From the NCBI RefSeq assembly GCF_000025925.1, contig NC_014033.1, forward strand, positions 3,450,001 through 3,482,000: a stretch of 32,000 nt of DNA, read 5' to 3'. Within the stretch, counting starts at the first letter, position 1. Each line of letters begins with the position of its first letter. Positions 350 through 8,042 of the stretch are shown here, in pieces. The notes under the pieces are model-generated. The model was not told where the DNA came from. It did no database searches and saw only the letters and a program-made list of their open reading frames with translations. Position numbers and translations under genes: made by a program. This DNA is from Xylanibacter ruminicola 23. Its GTDB lineage: Bacteria > Bacteroidota > Bacteroidia > Bacteroidales > Bacteroidaceae.

Positions 350-401
350 GTATAAAACAAATTATTTTTGATTTTTTGTTTGGCGTATAAGAATAATGTT
401 G

Positions 402-409
402 TATATTTG
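402..409 (+). promoter_or_regulatory. -7 promoter box (TATATTTG) for the riboswitch/flavodoxin-like transcript
   Basis: TAnnTTTG match located ~90 nt upstream of the riboswitch core. Confidence 0.5.
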
Positions 410-434
410 CAACGTGATTCAAGAATGAGTCTAT

Positions 435-494
435 GTGAAAGTTGAGGCTACGCCTCGACATAACGTGAACGTTGAGGCATAGCCTCGACCTTCG
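435..494 (+). repeat. Two tandem 30-nt units, each an 8-bp hairpin, in the 5' leader
   Basis: The units are gtgaaagttgaggctacgcctcgacataac (435-464) and gtgaacgttgaggcatagcctcgaccttcg (465-494). In each unit gttgaggc pairs with gcctcgac across a 3-nt loop. Confidence 0.8.
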
Positions 495-496
495 CC

Positions 497-655
497 CGTA
501 AAGGTTCGCTTAGCCGCGATTAATTGGGAATGTGAGTGAGAATCTCCGACTGTCCCGCAGCAGTGAACTCCATTATGGCTCCTAAGCATCAATGCCATTG
601 CCCGTTTGGGTGAGAAGGCGCTTGGGAGTGGAGGAAAGTCTGAAGACCAGCCTTT
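497..655 (+). promoter_or_regulatory. Cobalamin (B12) riboswitch
   Basis: aattgggaatgtgagtgagaatctccgactgtcccgcagcagtgaa (522-567) matches the conserved core (GGGAA..GGUG.GAAUC....C.G.CCCGC.AC.GU.A). gccattg...gggtgagaaggcg (594-620) matches the GCCACUG...GGGAAGGC 3' element. gctcctaagc (578-587) can pair with gcttgggagt (620-629). The boundaries are approximate. Confidence 0.75.
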
Positions 656-716
656 TTCGGTATTTGCTAAATGCTCTCGATGTAAGGGCGTGAGGCGCAA
701 CTTAATTTTTGTGGGT

Positions 717-1112
717 ATGAAACATGAATCAATCGTCGTGGTATACGACAGTTGTCAGGCTATTGCAGAAGAAATAGCCGACAAGCTTGGCGCTGAAACT
801 ATCAGCGTACAGAGTATTAACAACAGGCAGATAGAAAACTGCCAGAGTTTTGTTCTTGCATTAGAGTTTATGGCTGATGGAAGTATGACTCCCCATTGGC
901 AGTGGGCTTGTCAAACGTTGCGTGGTGCTAGCCTAAGTGGAAAGAACTTTGCCGTGTTAGTGGCATTAGGTAACAAACTGAATCATGATGCAGATAAAAT
1001 TTGCCATGAACTGCGTGAACGCCATGCGCACATTGTTGGCGAACAGCTATATGCTGAAACGCCCCAATGCAATCTCGAAAATTGGATATGTTCTGTTTCA
1101 CCTAATTTATAA
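717..1112 (+). CDS. Flavodoxin-like protein, degenerate (lacks the canonical FMN phosphate-binding loop)
   Basis: It aligns by eye with the neighbouring true flavodoxin: IVVVYDS---CQAIAEEIADKLG against IVIYGSSTGTCEAIAEKIASKLG, and LRGASLSGKNFAV against LQGADLSGKTIAI. The S/T-x-T-G-x-T loop and the TSTWG tryptophan region are missing. The start is set at ATG 717 because the track ORF start at 606 lies inside the riboswitch. Confidence 0.7.
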   Translation: MKHESIVVVYDSCQAIAEEIADKLGAETISVQSINNRQIENCQSFVLALEFMADGSMTPHWQWACQTLRGASLSGKNFAVLVALGNKLNHDADKICHELRERHAHIVGEQLYAETPQCNLENWICSVSPNL

Positions 1113-1255
1113 TCAAATTACTATGGTATACATTTTAGTAGTAGCTTTGGAATTTTTGCTCGCAACCATTGGTGTAGCGTGTCTTATCAGACACTATAAC
1201 CACAAAGTTTAGTGGCTATATAGAAACAATGATTGTTAATTTATGCCGCAAAGAT

Positions 1256-1341: not shown

Positions 1342-1836
1342 TTAAAGACTTGGAGTAATAGCTGCCAACCAGGCATCGATACGTGTATCGGTCTGGTCGT
1401 CCTCATTGATGTCGTCGAGAGGCAGGCCAATAAACTTTCCGTCGATAACTGCTTCAGAATCGTCGAAAGTGTAACCATCGGTTTCAACGCTACCAATAAA
1501 GTTGGCACCGCTGTCTTTGATGCCGTTATAGAGCTCACCCATACCACCTACAAATGTATCACTATAGGTAGAACAGTCGCCACAACCAAAGATGGCGATA
1601 GTTTTTCCGCTCAGGTCGGCACCCTGTAAGGTCTTCAAACCGTCGTACCAATCGTCCTGCAGTTCGCCAGCTCCCCAGGTAGAGGTACCTAAGATCAGAT
1701 TCTGGTTTGCGGCAACGGTTTCGGCCGAAAGATCCTGTACATTCAAGGCTTCGCAACCCAGCTTCGAGGCTATCTTCTCTGCGATGGCCTCGCATGTTCC
1801 TGTAGAGGAACCATAAATTACAATAGTTGAATTCAT
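1342..1836 (-). CDS. fldA: Flavodoxin (long-chain)
   Basis: The N-terminal segment IVIYGSSTGTCEAIAEKI carries the FMN phosphate loop. The TSTWGAGELQDDW motif and the 164-aa length are typical of FldA. Confidence 0.9.
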   Translation of the reverse strand: MNSTIVIYGSSTGTCEAIAEKIASKLGCEALNVQDLSAETVAANQNLILGTSTWGAGELQDDWYDGLKTLQGADLSGKTIAIFGCGDCSTYSDTFVGGMGELYNGIKDSGANFIGSVETDGYTFDDSEAVIDGKFIGLPLDDINEDDQTDTRIDAWLAAITPSL

Positions 1837-2374: not shown

Positions 2375-3535
2375 TTAAGCGTACGAGTGCATGCCGCCTA
2401 AGAAGTAGTTTACACCAAAGTAAGTCATGAGGATGGTGAGGAATGCCAGAACCATATACACGTTGTGATTAAGTTTGATGCTACGATGGGCGGGGATGCC
2501 GTAAATCATCAGGGTGATGAGTGCCCAGGTTTCTTTGGGGTCCCACGACCAGTAGTTTCCCCACGAGATGTTGGCCCAGATGGCACCGATAAAGATACCA
2601 AAGCCTAAGAAGGTGAGTGCAGGGTAGAGCAGCATCTGCGACAGGTGTTGCATGCCTTGGCGATGCTTGGCAGAAATAATACCCACCAGACTGCTGAGGC
2701 AGGCAAACAACAATAGGGTGTAAGCCAGCATGATAGTTGCAATATGGATGGGCAGCAAACGCGAGTTGAGTACAGGCATGGGGTGGTTCTCAGGCGAGTA
2801 CTTATTCAAGAAGTGATACATCAGGAATAAGAAGCATGCCGCGATGCCAGCTGCAAAGATATTCAGTTGTCGGCGATGATTGCGCAGCAAAGCCAGCTGT
2901 TCGCGGAACCTGCCCTTAGGATCGATGAGTATCCAGATGAGCGATACAAACAGCAAGGCGTAACCACAGTAGGTTACGGGGATGCCCCATGGATCGTAAT
3001 TCAGCGACAGGATACTACCCTGCATATCTGCATCGTAGTCCATTTGATACAGGCGGATATTCCTATAACTGGCAATCTGATTCATTGAGATGGTAAAGGG
3101 CTTGCCATCGATGGTAACCTGCGAGATATAGTCGGATGGCATCTCTGTCCCCTCATAGAACTTTACGTCAAAATGCTCCAGACAGATGTTGAAAGGCAAC
3201 TGGTGGAGGTGCATGTCGCGTGTTAGGAATGTGTTGGTGGCTACGCCCTGACGTAAAGGTACTACACCTCTTACGGCGGTGAGATGCGTGAGCAGGGCAC
3301 CTGCCAGGATAACTACAAACGACAGGTGTAGCACCATTACCGATGGGCGACGCACCTTACGCTTGATGAGCCAGAATATGCTGATGGCTACTAACAAAGC
3401 CCATAAGGCCGAGAACCACCAGGCACCATAGATATTGTTGGATACATACTCTGTACCCTGATATTTCTCAAAAACCGTGGCGGCTGCCAGTACAGCAACC
3501 ACCACGATGTATAGAATGATTATACTTCGCTTCAT
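2375..3535 (-). CDS. ccsA: Cytochrome c biogenesis protein CcsA/ResC family (system II haem handling)
   Basis: It is polytopic and carries the W-rich haem-handling motif WGNYWSWDPKETWALITL, with conserved His residues nearby. Confidence 0.8.
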   Translation of the reverse strand: MKRSIIILYIVVVAVLAAATVFEKYQGTEYVSNNIYGAWWFSALWALLVAISIFWLIKRKVRRPSVMVLHLSFVVILAGALLTHLTAVRGVVPLRQGVATNTFLTRDMHLHQLPFNICLEHFDVKFYEGTEMPSDYISQVTIDGKPFTISMNQIASYRNIRLYQMDYDADMQGSILSLNYDPWGIPVTYCGYALLFVSLIWILIDPKGRFREQLALLRNHRRQLNIFAAGIAACFLFLMYHFLNKYSPENHPMPVLNSRLLPIHIATIMLAYTLLLFACLSSLVGIISAKHRQGMQHLSQMLLYPALTFLGFGIFIGAIWANISWGNYWSWDPKETWALITLMIYGIPAHRSIKLNHNVYMVLAFLTILMTYFGVNYFLGGMHSYA

Positions 3536-3565
3536 ATATAATAAAACGTAAATGGCGTGCGATTA

Positions 3566-5320
3566 TTATATTGACTCGATGAATTTTATTACAGCATCTC
3601 TATCGGCCTTAGGCAGATGATAGAATTTCTCTGTTGGTCCGTAAGCATCCGACTGCTTTGAATAACCATGCCACATGATAGCCTCAAGTACACTGCGGGC
3701 ACGGCAGTCGTGCAGACGATCGTTAGCACCTGTAAGCAACTGCGACAGTCCGCGACCCCACAATGGTGTGGTGCGGCACCAGCCAGTGCGGATGTCGTTC
3801 TTCATCATCAGGCGATGCTGAACCATATCGGTGTAAGGCCAGATGGTCTGGTTAGGATAGCGTGGCAGCATCTTGTTGGCATCCTTACCAATGCTCTTGG
3901 CATAAGCCTTGATGCTGGCATCTACCCACATATCGTCGTTGCCAGTCTTCCATGAAGGACGGTGGCAGCGGGCACAGCCAATCTGCGAGAACAGATCCTT
4001 ACCGCGCTGTACGGCTTCATCGTTCAGATTACGGGCAGCAGGCACAGCCAGAGCACGATGCCATACCATAAACTGATAGTACTGCTTGTCGCTCATCTCT
4101 TCCTTGCCATTATAAGGTGCACCGTTAAACAGGTACTTGTCGAAAGTCTCTTTCTTGGCAATCGACGAACAGCTCAGAATCTCGTTTACACGAGCCGCAA
4201 TACCTTCGTCGGTACCATCGGCATAGTAGGGGTGCAGAATGCTGAGTGGCGATTCACCATGCTCTTTGATATAGCTGATAACCTCCTTATCCTCGCTTTG
4301 TGCCTTTGCCCATGCTGGGGTGGTGTATAGGAAGTGACGGTCGCTACGGGTGACGTTGGTGATATTCCAGATAGCGTTAGAACCGGCACCATCCTGCAGC
4401 GAACCGCGAGTCATGGCATAGGTGAAGCGCTTAATCGGACCATGAGAGCCACGGAATGTGCCCAGATCGTTATAAGCAGCCGAATAGTAGGCAGACGCCT
4501 TGAAGGTGCCAGCCTCCTGATCCCACATGGCAGGGTTCAGTGTGGCATGCTTCGACTCGGCCAACCACTGTGCCTCGATATCCTCATCGCTGATGGCATC
4601 GAGCAGGCCTGTACCATAAACACCGATGGTTGACTCCAGTCGTACCTCGTAGTTGGTAGGCAGTGGGTTGGTGTTGAAGGCGGTCTGTGGGATTGTTACT
4701 TCAGGATAGATGAGGGCGTACTCCTCGCCATCTTCAAACTTCATGGGCAGTCCGCTCTCCATGGCTGTCACATTCTTCCAGTCGATGGTTATCTGATTTT
4801 CGTCGATAGGAGCCTTGAAGGGTGACATGGCCTGTGTCTGAGGCATACCTGTAACCTCGGTGATGTAGCCGTTGGTATCAGGATGATAAATCACCAGCAG
4901 ATAGCCGTTGCCAATCTGGTTGGCACGATATTCGGTCTGTCGCTTGCCGTGACCATAGCTGGGGTGGCAGGCGATACACGAGTTGCGCACCCATGCAGGA
5001 CCTAAGCCTTTACGTGGTTCCTGCTCAAAGGTGTAGAGCTTCTCAAAGAAACCTTCACCCGTATTGAAGTCTTCCTCCATGCCAGCGGCTATAGCAGCAG
5101 GAGTGATGGCCGAATAGCTGGCCTTCTCGGTGGTGCCGAGCTCACCGCCGGGGTACCATTCCTCGGCAGTAAAATTACCAGTAGCTTTTCCGAATGCTTG
5201 TTCTTCAGGTGTCAGAGGTCCCAGATCTGCAAAGTCGTTATTATCGGAACATGCTGTCAGCCCTGCGGCCGACAGCATTCCGAAACATACAACACATGTT
5301 AGTTTCGATATTTTCTCCAT
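3566..5320 (-). CDS. Di-haem cytochrome c peroxidase-like lipoprotein (DUF1111 / 'thiol oxidoreductase' family)
   Basis: The signal peptide has a lipobox (LTAC). There are two CxxCH haem motifs, CIACH and CARCH. The position directly downstream of an imelysin gene is typical of this family. Confidence 0.8.
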   Translation of the reverse strand: MEKISKLTCVVCFGMLSAAGLTACSDNNDFADLGPLTPEEQAFGKATGNFTAEEWYPGGELGTTEKASYSAITPAAIAAGMEEDFNTGEGFFEKLYTFEQEPRKGLGPAWVRNSCIACHPSYGHGKRQTEYRANQIGNGYLLVIYHPDTNGYITEVTGMPQTQAMSPFKAPIDENQITIDWKNVTAMESGLPMKFEDGEEYALIYPEVTIPQTAFNTNPLPTNYEVRLESTIGVYGTGLLDAISDEDIEAQWLAESKHATLNPAMWDQEAGTFKASAYYSAAYNDLGTFRGSHGPIKRFTYAMTRGSLQDGAGSNAIWNITNVTRSDRHFLYTTPAWAKAQSEDKEVISYIKEHGESPLSILHPYYADGTDEGIAARVNEILSCSSIAKKETFDKYLFNGAPYNGKEEMSDKQYYQFMVWHRALAVPAARNLNDEAVQRGKDLFSQIGCARCHRPSWKTGNDDMWVDASIKAYAKSIGKDANKMLPRYPNQTIWPYTDMVQHRLMMKNDIRTGWCRTTPLWGRGLSQLLTGANDRLHDCRARSVLEAIMWHGYSKQSDAYGPTEKFYHLPKADRDAVIKFIESI

Positions 5321-5352
5321 TAGTGTATTTGTTTAATTAATGTTCAGGTGTA

Positions 5353-6687
5353 TTACTCTCCAGATGTAGAGTCCCAGTTGTCGGGATCGTCGAAGTTCTT
5401 GCCCCATACCACGCTGCAATACTTAACGAATGGTGTTGGCATGTTGCTGATACCCTCGATAGCACCCACGTAGTTGCTTTCTACAGCGGTGTTCACCTTG
5501 TCGCTCTTTACGCTGGCAAAGAAGGTGTGGAAGCTGTACTCGTTAGCCTTCTTGTCGGTTGAACCCAGCCATACGTTACGGATACTGCGGATGTTATCGC
5601 GGAAGTCGGTGATTGAGTTGTAGCTGTAAGGCGACTCTACATAAGCGATGTCGCCTGCAGAGAATGGGTTGGCAATCTTGGCTGTACCTACCTCGTTACA
5701 GATAGCCAAGCATGAGCCTTCGTCGTTAATCAGTACCTGAGCAATGGCATCCTTCAGTGTGGGGAAGGTGCTCTTGCTGCCACTTACACCAGCCTGCTTC
5801 AGGTTCTCGCCATAAGAGAGACCTGCGGCGGTAGTCATATCCAGACCTGCGGCCTTAACTACTGCTACACGAGCGGCATTAGCTGCTGTCTCGCCCTCCC
5901 AGGCAACCTGCAACTGGAAGCAACGCTGCTTAAGCAGGGTGCAGATAGTCTGAGCGTAAGCCAGCTCCTGGGCACCAGTAATCTTCTCGAAGTTAGTGTA
6001 GGTATCGTTACCCTGCAACTCGGCTACCTTACGGTTCTGACCGTTACGGAACAGGATGAACTCCAAAGCGTGGAAGCCCAGGATGGTGGCATCCTCCAGC
6101 ATCTCGTCGTTCATGCCATTGTTAAAGTAGTTGAGCAGCAGACTGCGGTTCAAAGGCCATGAATCGATAGTTGGGTCGATATCGAAATCGCTGGCGGCAC
6201 CCATCAGGAATGCCTCAGAGCGCTCCCAGTTCTGGCGGGCCTGCTTAAAGTCGGCACAAGCCTTGTCAATCTGGGCCTGTGTAATGCTGTTTACGGTCAG
6301 ACCGTTCAGAGTCTTCTCCAAATCCTCAACATCATCAGCCAACTGTGTATAGGTAGGAACGATGACGTTACCAACCAGAGTCTCGAGTACCTTGCGCAGG
6401 TAAGCCTCTTGAGCCTCGCTCAGTTTTGCTGTAGCGATGGTGGTATTGGCATTTTCAAGCTCTGAAATCAGCGACAAACAGTTGTCGATAGCGTCCTGAC
6501 CGAAAGCCTTGCTGTTGTAGTTTGCAGCGGTGGTGTTCTGGGGATAGCTGTCCTCATCTACCAATGGTGTAGTGTTGATAACGTTGAACTCGTTACCGTT
6601 CTCTTCATTGTTGTTGTTACTTTCACTGCAGGCAGTGAACGCGAGTCCCATCATGAGGACCGACATTGCATAAGTAATTTTCTTCAT
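5353..6687 (-). CDS. Imelysin-family (peptidase M75-like / EfeO-like) lipoprotein
   Basis: The signal peptide has a lipobox (FTAC). The GFHALEFILF segment carries the imelysin HxxE signature. Size and operon context fit imelysin-type iron-uptake loci. Confidence 0.75.
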   Translation of the reverse strand: MKKITYAMSVLMMGLAFTACSESNNNNEENGNEFNVINTTPLVDEDSYPQNTTAANYNSKAFGQDAIDNCLSLISELENANTTIATAKLSEAQEAYLRKVLETLVGNVIVPTYTQLADDVEDLEKTLNGLTVNSITQAQIDKACADFKQARQNWERSEAFLMGAASDFDIDPTIDSWPLNRSLLLNYFNNGMNDEMLEDATILGFHALEFILFRNGQNRKVAELQGNDTYTNFEKITGAQELAYAQTICTLLKQRCFQLQVAWEGETAANAARVAVVKAAGLDMTTAAGLSYGENLKQAGVSGSKSTFPTLKDAIAQVLINDEGSCLAICNEVGTAKIANPFSAGDIAYVESPYSYNSITDFRDNIRSIRNVWLGSTDKKANEYSFHTFFASVKSDKVNTAVESNYVGAIEGISNMPTPFVKYCSVVWGKNFDDPDNWDSTSGE

Positions 6688-6720
6688 TGCTGTTATAATA
6701 ATTATGTGGTTATTTTCTTA

Positions 6721-8001
6721 TTAGAGGAAGAATCCTTCGTAAGCCACACCGATGTTAACTGATGGCTCGTTGTTGTATTTGCTCTTTAAGAAGCGCTTAG
6801 AGTACTCGGCCTTGATCACAATCTGCTTGATGGGGTGATAGTTCAGACCCACTGCCATGCGCTTAACGGCTGTGTAGTCGTAGCTGATGCCCTTGGTGTC
6901 GCTGGCGTAGGGATTGTAAGCCTCGTAACGTCCGAACAGATAAAGGCGCTCACCCTGCTGGCGCATGCTCTGTATCTGCGAGAAGATGTCGTAGCCAGCC
7001 TCGATACCCATGGCATAAGCATTGCCGCTTACAAAGGCAGAGTGCTTGTAAGGCGACTTAGAGTTCAAACGGTTGTACATGTACTTCAGCTCTTCAGCGT
7101 CGCCTAAGTAACCGTAGTCGGCCTGTCCGCGAACAATCCAGTTGTGGGCATTGTAGGTGAAGTCGATGGCACCAATGGCCACCTTACCCTGATAGGTGGC
7201 GCCTGTACCGTTGGCATCGTTAGGGTAGGTATTGCCGATGCTGTGACCGTAGTAGCCGCTCAGACCGATACGTAAACCAGGAATAGAGTAGTTGTCGATA
7301 CGCAGGGCTGCTGCATATTTGTTGGCTACATCAAACTCCATGGGTGACTTGTGACCTTTGTGAATCCAACCTACGTTGGTAAACTGGTCGGCATTCAAGC
7401 CGCCTAAGAACTGAGCCTCGTAGCGGAACTTGCCTGCACGGCCCCAGAACGATACGCCTGTCTGATGCCAGGTGCTGGGCATGATGGTGTTTTCGCCTTC
7501 GGGGCGATAAACAGTAAAGTAGCTCAGTGGCTCGTGGTGGGCATTGTTCAAACCTACGGGCACTACGATATGTCCGGCACGGATGTTAGCCCAAGGGGCA
7601 AACGACTTCTGCAGCCAGAACTGCTCCAGTTCTACCTCGCCGCCTTTCTCGGTTTCCTGTTCCCACTCACCGCCTTCTTCGTCTTCCTTCTCGTAGGCAA
7701 TACCTGCGCCGCCATGCTCAAACTCTATCTCGGTACCAAAACTCCAGCCTTTGCCAAAGTCGTAACCTAAATATATCACTGCATGGGGGATGTCAAGACG
7801 TCCGTGACTGGGATCGTTCTTATGTTCCTCGGGCTGACTGTAGCGACTCACGTGGTCGCTGTAATAATTTCGTGTAAAGTTTGCTTCGCCATAGCCACCA
7901 ACGCTCAAACGTGAGGTTTTGGTGCTATCTGCATTGTTCTTCTGTGCGCTGCCTGTTAAGCAGATCGCCATCATCATTAATGTATATATAAACCTTTTCA
8001 T
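6721..8001 (-). CDS. Outer-membrane beta-barrel (porin-like) protein of the imelysin locus
   Basis: The signal peptide is MKRFIYTLMMMAICLTGSAQ. The sequence has alternating aromatic/Gly-rich beta-strand character and an aromatic C-terminus (YEGFFL). The start is set at ATG 8001 because the -7 box at 8035-8042 excludes the 8037 start. Confidence 0.7.
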   Translation of the reverse strand: MKRFIYTLMMMAICLTGSAQKNNADSTKTSRLSVGGYGEANFTRNYYSDHVSRYSQPEEHKNDPSHGRLDIPHAVIYLGYDFGKGWSFGTEIEFEHGGAGIAYEKEDEEGGEWEQETEKGGEVELEQFWLQKSFAPWANIRAGHIVVPVGLNNAHHEPLSYFTVYRPEGENTIMPSTWHQTGVSFWGRAGKFRYEAQFLGGLNADQFTNVGWIHKGHKSPMEFDVANKYAAALRIDNYSIPGLRIGLSGYYGHSIGNTYPNDANGTGATYQGKVAIGAIDFTYNAHNWIVRGQADYGYLGDAEELKYMYNRLNSKSPYKHSAFVSGNAYAMGIEAGYDIFSQIQSMRQQGERLYLFGRYEAYNPYASDTKGISYDYTAVKRMAVGLNYHPIKQIVIKAEYSKRFLKSKYNNEPSVNIGVAYEGFFL

Positions 8002-8034
8002 AACCGAATTTAGTCTCTTAAACAAATCCGGGTG

Positions 8035-8042
8035 CAAAGGTA
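8035..8042 (-). promoter_or_regulatory. -7 promoter box (TACCTTTG on the minus strand) for the porin-imelysin operon
   Basis: The plus strand reads caaaggta, ~34 nt upstream of ATG 8001. Confidence 0.55.

Follow-up and report, generated by a model that had tools for sequence, protein, structure and literature searches.

A cobalamin riboswitch heads a flavin-less flavodoxin paralogue and a small membrane protein in Prevotella

At the start of a 32,000-nucleotide window from Xylanibacter ruminicola 23 (contig NC_014033.1, positions 3,450,001–3,482,000), a cobalamin riboswitch precedes two genes, one encoding a 131-residue paralogue of the flavodoxin FldA in which the FMN site has been lost, referred to here as the pseudo-flavodoxin, and the other a predicted membrane protein of 29 residues. 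We tentatively regard the pseudo-flavodoxin as a cofactor-less accessory protein of a B12-starvation module for the overflow of succinate or other dicarboxylates; literature searches found no description of its family or of such a module. The region comprises the following features.

379–409, forward strand: putative Bacteroidota primary-sigma promoter
435–494, forward strand: two tandem 30-nt hairpin units, species-specific
485–669, forward strand: cobalamin riboswitch aptamer, RF00174, full length (78 bits, E = 8e-18)
673–689, forward strand: 5-bp hairpin with the 7-nt loop CGAUGUA, conserved across loci
717–1112, forward strand: pseudo-flavodoxin P0001, 131 residues, an FMN-less flavodoxin paralogue by sequence, alignment and fold
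1123–1212, forward strand: predicted, unannotated 29-residue single-helix membrane protein, in the same operon
1266–1298, between the convergent operons: 15-bp hairpin
1342–1836, reverse strand: FldA, a bona fide long-chain flavodoxin (TIGR01752, 182 bits; PF00258, 76 bits)

The cobalamin riboswitch and its leader

The aptamer is the sole Rfam RNA family in the window and matches the RF00174 covariance model over its full 189 positions, with a score significant against the gathering score of 31.5 bits. The segments proposed in the initial annotation as a cobalamin-riboswitch core (522–567 and 594–620) fall within this match, and the promoter box placed ahead of them is visible in the sequence as TTTG (−33, 379–382) and TAnnTTTG (−7, 402–409) separated by 19 nt, which we take to be the Bacteroidota promoter consensus. 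A TAnnTTTG-like box lies at the equivalent spot 5′ of the aptamer in most orthologous leaders. The riboswitch follows this promoter and forms the 5′ leader of a same-strand gene, an arrangement kept in orthologues, and the pseudo-flavodoxin start codon at 717 follows the aptamer end by 47 nt.

Within this interval, the loop of the hairpin at 673–689 is invariant and its stem changes are compensatory across loci (U–A to A–U, C–G to A–U); this hairpin is probably the kissing-loop partner P13/L13 of the expression platform. No consensus intrinsic terminator was found between the aptamer and the start codon, so that control would be exerted either through Rho-dependent termination or at the level of translation and decay. 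The 30-nt hairpin unit is present in one or two copies in X. ruminicola strains and occurs neither in the other leaders examined nor elsewhere in the genome; not being conserved, it was rejected as a component of the switch.

Upstream of the riboswitch promoter, a promoter box (173–180), a 12-codon open reading frame (233–271) and a strong terminator hairpin (about 299–345) on the forward strand suggest that 173–352 may encode a small transcript of about 160 nt (folding z-score −2.2). At 60–135 a GTCCGAC core recurs in several imperfect direct repeats, which may form a regulator-binding array. In long-leader loci (L010:1474–1560, L016:4918–5000, L077:506–580, L103 and about 20 others), an AU-rich stretch, a GNRA-capped hairpin and a U-run lie 25–35 nt before the paralogue or the small open reading frame, and also between a DASS transporter gene and the paralogue; this element matches no Rfam family, and the short leader of the window lacks it.

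The genome contains four cobalamin riboswitches, two of which precede TonB-receptor and cob/cbi operons. A further one (genome 2197551–2197736, reverse strand; locus L157) starts about 12 nt past an Lrp/AsnC stop codon and is followed by no gene. In aptamer and 3′ tail it is very similar to the long leader of the pseudo-flavodoxin in other genomes, and it may be a copy of that leader from which the cargo was lost. The Lrp/AsnC gene at the matching position of strain KHP1 (J4031_11665) is down 3.75 log2 with B12 (PMC11575231).

Retention of the riboswitch among orthologues

Orthologues are consistently linked to the riboswitch. In 66 genome loci, it lies directly upstream of the paralogue in 54 and upstream of an intervening DASS transporter gene in 4; contig ends cut 5, of which 3 retain the 3′ half of the aptamer, and the aptamer is internally deleted in 1 locus and lost in 2. 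The riboswitch therefore heads 58 of the 61 informative loci, a count of retention and not of independent gains as the loci are related by descent, and the flanking genes differ widely. Distant members, reaching about 30% identity, are in their majority also riboswitch-linked where upstream sequence is available; one, L072, has no riboswitch. The closest public loci are from Xylanibacter (Prevotella) ruminicola. In L055 (4451–4949) and L058 (2730–3259), two cobalamin riboswitches stand back to back and diverge, one serving a TonB-dependent receptor and one the pseudo-flavodoxin module.

Response to B12 in strain KHP1

A published RNA-seq study compared X. ruminicola KHP1 with and without B12 (PMC11575231). 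Its Table S5 includes the KHP1 pseudo-flavodoxin riboswitch, and its Table S6 lists as eighth most repressed gene J4031_06995, left there as ‘hypothetical protein’, with a log2 fold change of −4.22 (Q = 1.5e-180), about 19-fold lower with B12. Assignment of this tag to the KHP1 pseudo-flavodoxin gene is by synteny and is strong but inferred: the tag is six steps from the single-copy cysK (J4031_07025), and exactly five genes lie between cysK and the pseudo-flavodoxin gene in locus L198, which carries the KHP1 riboswitch allele and the flanks of X. ruminicola-like transcriptome contigs. The annotation of J4031_06995 contains the stray word ‘cmsearch’, as does the thiS entry of the same table, which suggests a neighbouring riboswitch feature. 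Contigs from the RNA runs span the operon; they were used only for strain alleles, since contig depth cannot rank expression. The protein itself was not among the 13 differentially abundant proteins of that study (PMC11575231).

From the RNA-seq values we infer with high confidence that B12 very likely represses the pseudo-flavodoxin gene, which upholds the B12-repressed half of an earlier suggestion that the protein is a B12-repressed redox partner. The element resembles other RF00174 riboswitches in its full-length match, its 5′ leader position and its behaviour as an OFF switch with B12, but its cargo belongs neither to B12 transport or synthesis nor to the recognised B12-independent isozymes.

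About 4–6 kb before the window are metY and cysK (L001:13581–15997). In KHP1, metY is down 5.2 log2 with B12 (PMC11575231). Given this drop and the lack of a MetE match in the genome, MetY may serve as a methionine bypass while MetH is idle.

The pseudo-flavodoxin

The pseudo-flavodoxin is 37% identical to the convergently encoded FldA over 81 residues (E = 8e-16), and the family profile aligns with FldA at 99.5% probability over its whole length (131 columns), in agreement with the similarity of the two neighbours reported earlier. In a tree lacking an outgroup, from which the order of events is not readable, paralogues and FldA proteins fall on opposite sides of one well-supported branch. 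The AlphaFold model (pLDDT 87.7) has five strands and core helices in a flavodoxin fold, and its best structural matches are flavodoxins (Z-score of 15.2 and r.m.s.d. of 2.6 over 127 residues with 3f6r). On these comparisons the protein clearly derives from FldA by descent, sharing with it the fold and the core residues Y10, G25, W61, L73-G75-K76 and W123 and a C-terminal motif. It differs from FldA in lacking the phosphate loop, the Trp and Tyr stacking loops and the long-chain insertion, in being far less acidic (mean net charge −5.6 versus −18.3) and in its regulation by B12. FldA, the only flavodoxin of its type in the genome, is outside riboswitch control.

All four FMN loops of the paralogue are deleted or replaced, with loss of both stacking aromatics. 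Relative to FldA, four residues are missing from the phosphate loop; the third FMN loop is lost together with its aromatic residue; and about 26 residues comprising the long-chain insertion and the last FMN loop that follows it are deleted. The Trp loop keeps the length it has in FldA, with its residues replaced (Ser to Glu50, Thr to Phe51, Trp to Met52, Asp-Asp to Pro-His), so that Glu50 occupies the position of the phosphate-binding Ser. The initial annotation was thus correct that the phosphate loop and the long-chain insertion are missing and that the FMN site is lost; as for the W-containing loop, which it described as missing, the motif and the Trp are lost but the loop is rewritten rather than deleted. 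The phosphate-loop motif S/T-x-T-G-x-T was found in 0 of 190 homologues versus 17 of 17 FldA proteins (Prevotella variant), and the S/T-T-W-G loop and the third-loop aromatic motif are each found in 0 of 190; no homologue has any of the three motifs, which the 17 FldA proteins have. The paralogue falls below curated cut-offs (21.5 against 25 for PF00258, 31.5 against 146.75 for TIGR01752). With high confidence, the pseudo-flavodoxin is predicted not to bind FMN, and the name ‘flavodoxin’ that some databases give to family members is probably wrong functionally.

The gene is, judged by its substitution pattern and spread, under purifying selection and not a pseudogene, because its median pairwise dN/dS is 0.15 at a dS of about 0.85 (0.06 for FldA), the family forms at least 264 clusters at 90% identity, and distant members are at about 30% identity. 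Length is held at 131–136 residues (a few have 144) down to 30% identity. Of 400 Prevotella genomes, 28 contain a member; among the order and family genomes searched, none was found beyond GTDB Prevotella (Prevotella sensu lato), hits at 1e-18 to 1e-23 being plain FldA. Atlas look-alikes were only clusters of the same family and ordinary flavodoxins, and a weak search for longer fused forms found none. An upstream start giving 140–178 residues was rejected, as it would fall in the aptamer or leader and homologues begin at the same Met.

Residues conserved family-wide are mostly fold residues common to FldA. Conserved polar residues (D11, S12, C13, E50, H60 and N86) are present on the former cofactor face in the main clade, the invariance of the N-terminal ones being partly an ascertainment effect of the search seeds.

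The 29-residue membrane protein

The second open reading frame (1123–1212), overlooked in the initial annotation, begins ten bases past the paralogue stop codon and, by its position, is co-transcribed with the pseudo-flavodoxin. In alignments its product has an invariant Glu-Phe in mid-helix and a basic, His-containing C terminus. It is kept behind the paralogue in about 55 loci and has a dN/dS of 0.13–0.15, with no Pfam or NCBIfam match. Of the 400 Prevotella genomes, 29 encode it, and 25 of these also have the paralogue, which 28 genomes contain; this overlap is inflated by linkage and kinship. Small membrane proteins that tune transporters include AcrZ, KdpF and MgtS. The 29-residue protein is like them in size (about 30 residues), single helix, induction under stress and location beside transporter genes, a likeness that serves as a lead, but it has no family match.

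Just before the window start (genome about 3449570–3449830, reverse strand), two small hydrophobic open reading frames of 33 and 32 residues diverge from the riboswitch promoter. They are also present at L199:8858–9114, are absent from the KHP1-like locus L198, and resemble clusters of small membrane proteins divergent from the riboswitch or from LysR genes in other genomes.

On the other side, the hairpin at 1266–1298 (RNAfold −25.6 kcal/mol, with a U-tract on the minus strand) is a probable bidirectional terminator. A role of the operon as antisense to fldA was considered and dropped: the two operons are kept apart by this strong hairpin, many strains carry additional genes in between, and fldA is not a neighbour in most loci. 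Two metagenome contigs of X. ruminicola (L200 and L201, downstream of 10396) lack fldA and a DUF2023 gene at this locus and have an intact paralogue. Upstream of DUF2023 and fldA, an operon at 2375–8037 (reverse strand) encodes a porin-like protein, an imelysin lipoprotein, a di-haem oxidoreductase and a ResB/CcsA fusion, and looks like an iron-acquisition locus.

Gene neighbourhoods

Module genes recur in four arrangements.

Arrangement 1: riboswitch, then paralogue, then small protein, as in the X. ruminicola 23 window
Arrangement 2: small protein gene(s) divergent from riboswitch, then (DASS), paralogue and LysR, with T-N11-A boxes in the intergenic DNA
Arrangement 3: riboswitch with DASS and paralogue, in either gene order
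Arrangement 4: riboswitch, then small protein alone

All module parts are carried by L160. A DASS symporter gene adjoins the paralogue and points the same way; the pairing occurs in both gene orders and on several tree branches (L056–58, L060, L061, L077, L101, L104, L194), and two genomes with a riboswitch-linked DASS have a second DASS with no riboswitch match. A LysR gene lies 3′ of the paralogue in L100, L101, L103, L105–107, L195 and L197, where the T-N11-A boxes face the divergent small membrane gene; in loci lacking LysR, the small protein is usually directly under the riboswitch, as in the window. The same riboswitch heads a LysR gene in other genomes, which would constitute a relay from riboswitch to transcription factor. 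Because 19 of the 28 genomes with the paralogue gave no LysR match, an obligate co-regulator role for LysR was downgraded.

Of 23 other loci with a relative of this LysR, 10 have a ThrE-family exporter gene beside it, and in several of the others the relative diverges from similar short membrane open reading frames. In the source genome, the LysR relative diverges from two genes, one of the membrane-helix/TrkA-C type and one for ThrE; the pseudo-flavodoxin operon of this genome contains no DASS or LysR gene. At that LysR locus (genome 1468061–1470817; L156), the divergent genes encode a 109-residue protein, with one membrane helix that by eye resembles the small proteins and a TrkA-C domain, and a fused ThrE/ThrE_2 exporter, beyond which is a Na/Pi cotransporter fused to PhoU and a winged-helix DNA-binding domain. 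In L150, a paralogue of the small protein overlaps the start of an AspT/YidE transporter gene.

The DASS and AspT/YidE families include succinate transporters, and we take the YjjPB proteins to belong to the ThrE family. YjjPB of Escherichia coli are succinate exporters (PMC7236211).

A candidate B12-starvation overflow module

The succinate-overflow proposal draws on the succinate transporters in the DASS, ThrE/YjjPB and AspT/YidE families; the export role and any physical partner are attributed by association. Prevotella FldA would have been duplicated, and the copy would have lost the ability to bind flavin, along with most of the acidic surface, and been retained in a non-redox role, accessory or regulatory. 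Under cobalamin scarcity, the riboswitch would be open and would yield a two-gene message for the pseudo-flavodoxin and the 29-residue protein; in the presence of B12, this message would be shut off about 19-fold. The module would help to dispose of succinate, or a related dicarboxylate, piling up with the B12-dependent methylmalonyl-CoA mutase idle: without B12 the mutase would form no propionate, and so succinate would have to leave the cell. In its fullest form, the module would consist of small membrane protein gene(s) divergent from the riboswitch, followed by DASS, pseudo-flavodoxin and LysR.

In culture, X. ruminicola made propionate only with added B12, no riboswitch control of propionate-pathway genes was found, and succinate tended to be higher without B12, as a trend only (P = 0.07) (PMC11575231). 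Several points weigh against the proposal. With fold residues predominating among the conserved positions, no dedicated interface is evident. The operon in this genome is without DASS and LysR, most paralogue genomes (19 of 28) gave no LysR match, and the transporter substrates in Prevotella are putative. The negative search for fused forms, as weak evidence, and the absence of the protein from the differentially abundant set of KHP1 point the same way.

A stronger version, which we consider doubtful, is that this is a previously undescribed B12-starvation system of rumen and gut Prevotella in which the riboswitch releases a pseudo-flavodoxin and a 29-residue protein that physically switch on or tune succinate export, elsewhere by way of a LysR relay and a spare DASS.

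Alternative explanations

FldA reactivates MetH, and flavodoxin partners dock on the acidic FMN face. The pseudo-flavodoxin could be a flavodoxin decoy or a guard of apo-enzymes, binding a partner of FldA or an idle B12 enzyme and throttling or protecting it while B12 is absent; MetH with its reactivation module, methylmalonyl-CoA mutase, the PFL activase, Rnf and PFOR are candidate targets. Direct descent from FldA, the frequent presence of fldA as a neighbour, a genome with MetH and the mutase and no MetE match, and the strong induction of metY without B12 all suit this role, as does the part of FldA in MetH reactivation. We nevertheless judge it unlikely: the docking face is deleted or neutralised (net charge −7 versus −20, with Asp-Asp replaced by Pro-His), and in the loci examined the paralogue is never next to a candidate target enzyme.

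Quite improbable is that the emptied flavin site holds a corrinoid or cobalt for salvage, storage or sensing. The initial annotation had raised a corrinoid-binding or corrinoid-handling role, citing the flavodoxin-like fold of the cobalamin domain of methionine synthase. The PF02310 B12 domain of MetH and methylmalonyl-CoA mutase has a general flavodoxin-like α/β topology, and the likeness ends there; because the paralogue descends from FldA, the fold argument fails and is uninformative about B12. Control by a B12 riboswitch and the polar residues on the old cofactor face of the main clade speak for binding. Against it, the first loop has no DxHxxG (strings of this type occur in 3 of 190 homologues, all at other, unconserved places), the SxL and GG motifs of B12 domains are absent from the paralogue, and the family as a whole conserves no His at any position and no other polar residue on that face. 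Profile comparison by hhalign with the B12 domains of MetH and the mutase of this genome gave probabilities of 0.1% and 0.4%, and 50 family members gave no match to a B12-binding Pfam domain. No btu, cob or cbi genes are present in the paralogue operons of the loci examined. The best 50 fold matches listed include no B12-binding domain, an observation that is neutral on binding because families further down the ranking may match as well. HmuF/FldH of Fusobacterium nucleatum, a tetrapyrrole-binding flavodoxin (PMC10404700), offers a precedent for a flavodoxin-superfamily protein repurposed in a cofactor regulon and matches the paralogue model with a Z-score of 11.5, but it needs FMN and a helical cap bearing the axial His, whereas the 131-residue paralogue has neither FMN loops nor cap.

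We also give little credence to the paralogue being a dispensable relic, a fading passenger of a riboswitch whose real cargo is the 29-residue protein (or DASS or LysR). At least three loci have the riboswitch followed by the small protein with no paralogue (L134, L146, L152), the paralogue is broken in about 5 of 66 loci with the small open reading frame usually intact (L065–68, L070), and its dN/dS is more than twice that of FldA. Some of these breaks may, however, be assembly errors of metagenome bins, and a relic is hard to reconcile with the measured constraint (dN/dS 0.15 at a dS of about 0.85), the fixed length to 30% identity, the 264 or more clusters, and retention of the paralogue in every type of operon, including those without the small protein.

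Least probable is a protein that still binds FMN or riboflavin in an altered mode and works as a B12-independent electron carrier: its top fold matches are all flavodoxins (Z-score up to 15.2) and some databases call it one, but its four FMN loops are deleted or replaced, Glu50 stands at the phosphate-binding Ser position, both stacking aromatics are lost and it scores below the Pfam and NCBIfam cut-offs. The redox half of the earlier redox-partner suggestion is likewise unlikely, given the missing cofactor and the loss of most of the acidic surface.

Implications

The gene listed as hypothetical in KHP1 is assigned here to a flavin-less flavodoxin family under selection; a small membrane protein missing from the annotation joins it, and both are linked to genes for transporters and LysR. 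The parts of the module are of known kinds, the family is narrow in range and the mechanism is proposed. The B12 regulon thereby reaches further than uptake, synthesis and isozymes. Rumen Prevotella and Xylanibacter need B12 to form propionate, a process that is important for the glucose supply of the host and for greenhouse-gas output. If the proposal is true, the module would be a dedicated control point for the balance of propionate and succinate in dominant rumen bacteria, with the pseudo-flavodoxin and the 29-residue protein as a small, testable two-gene target.
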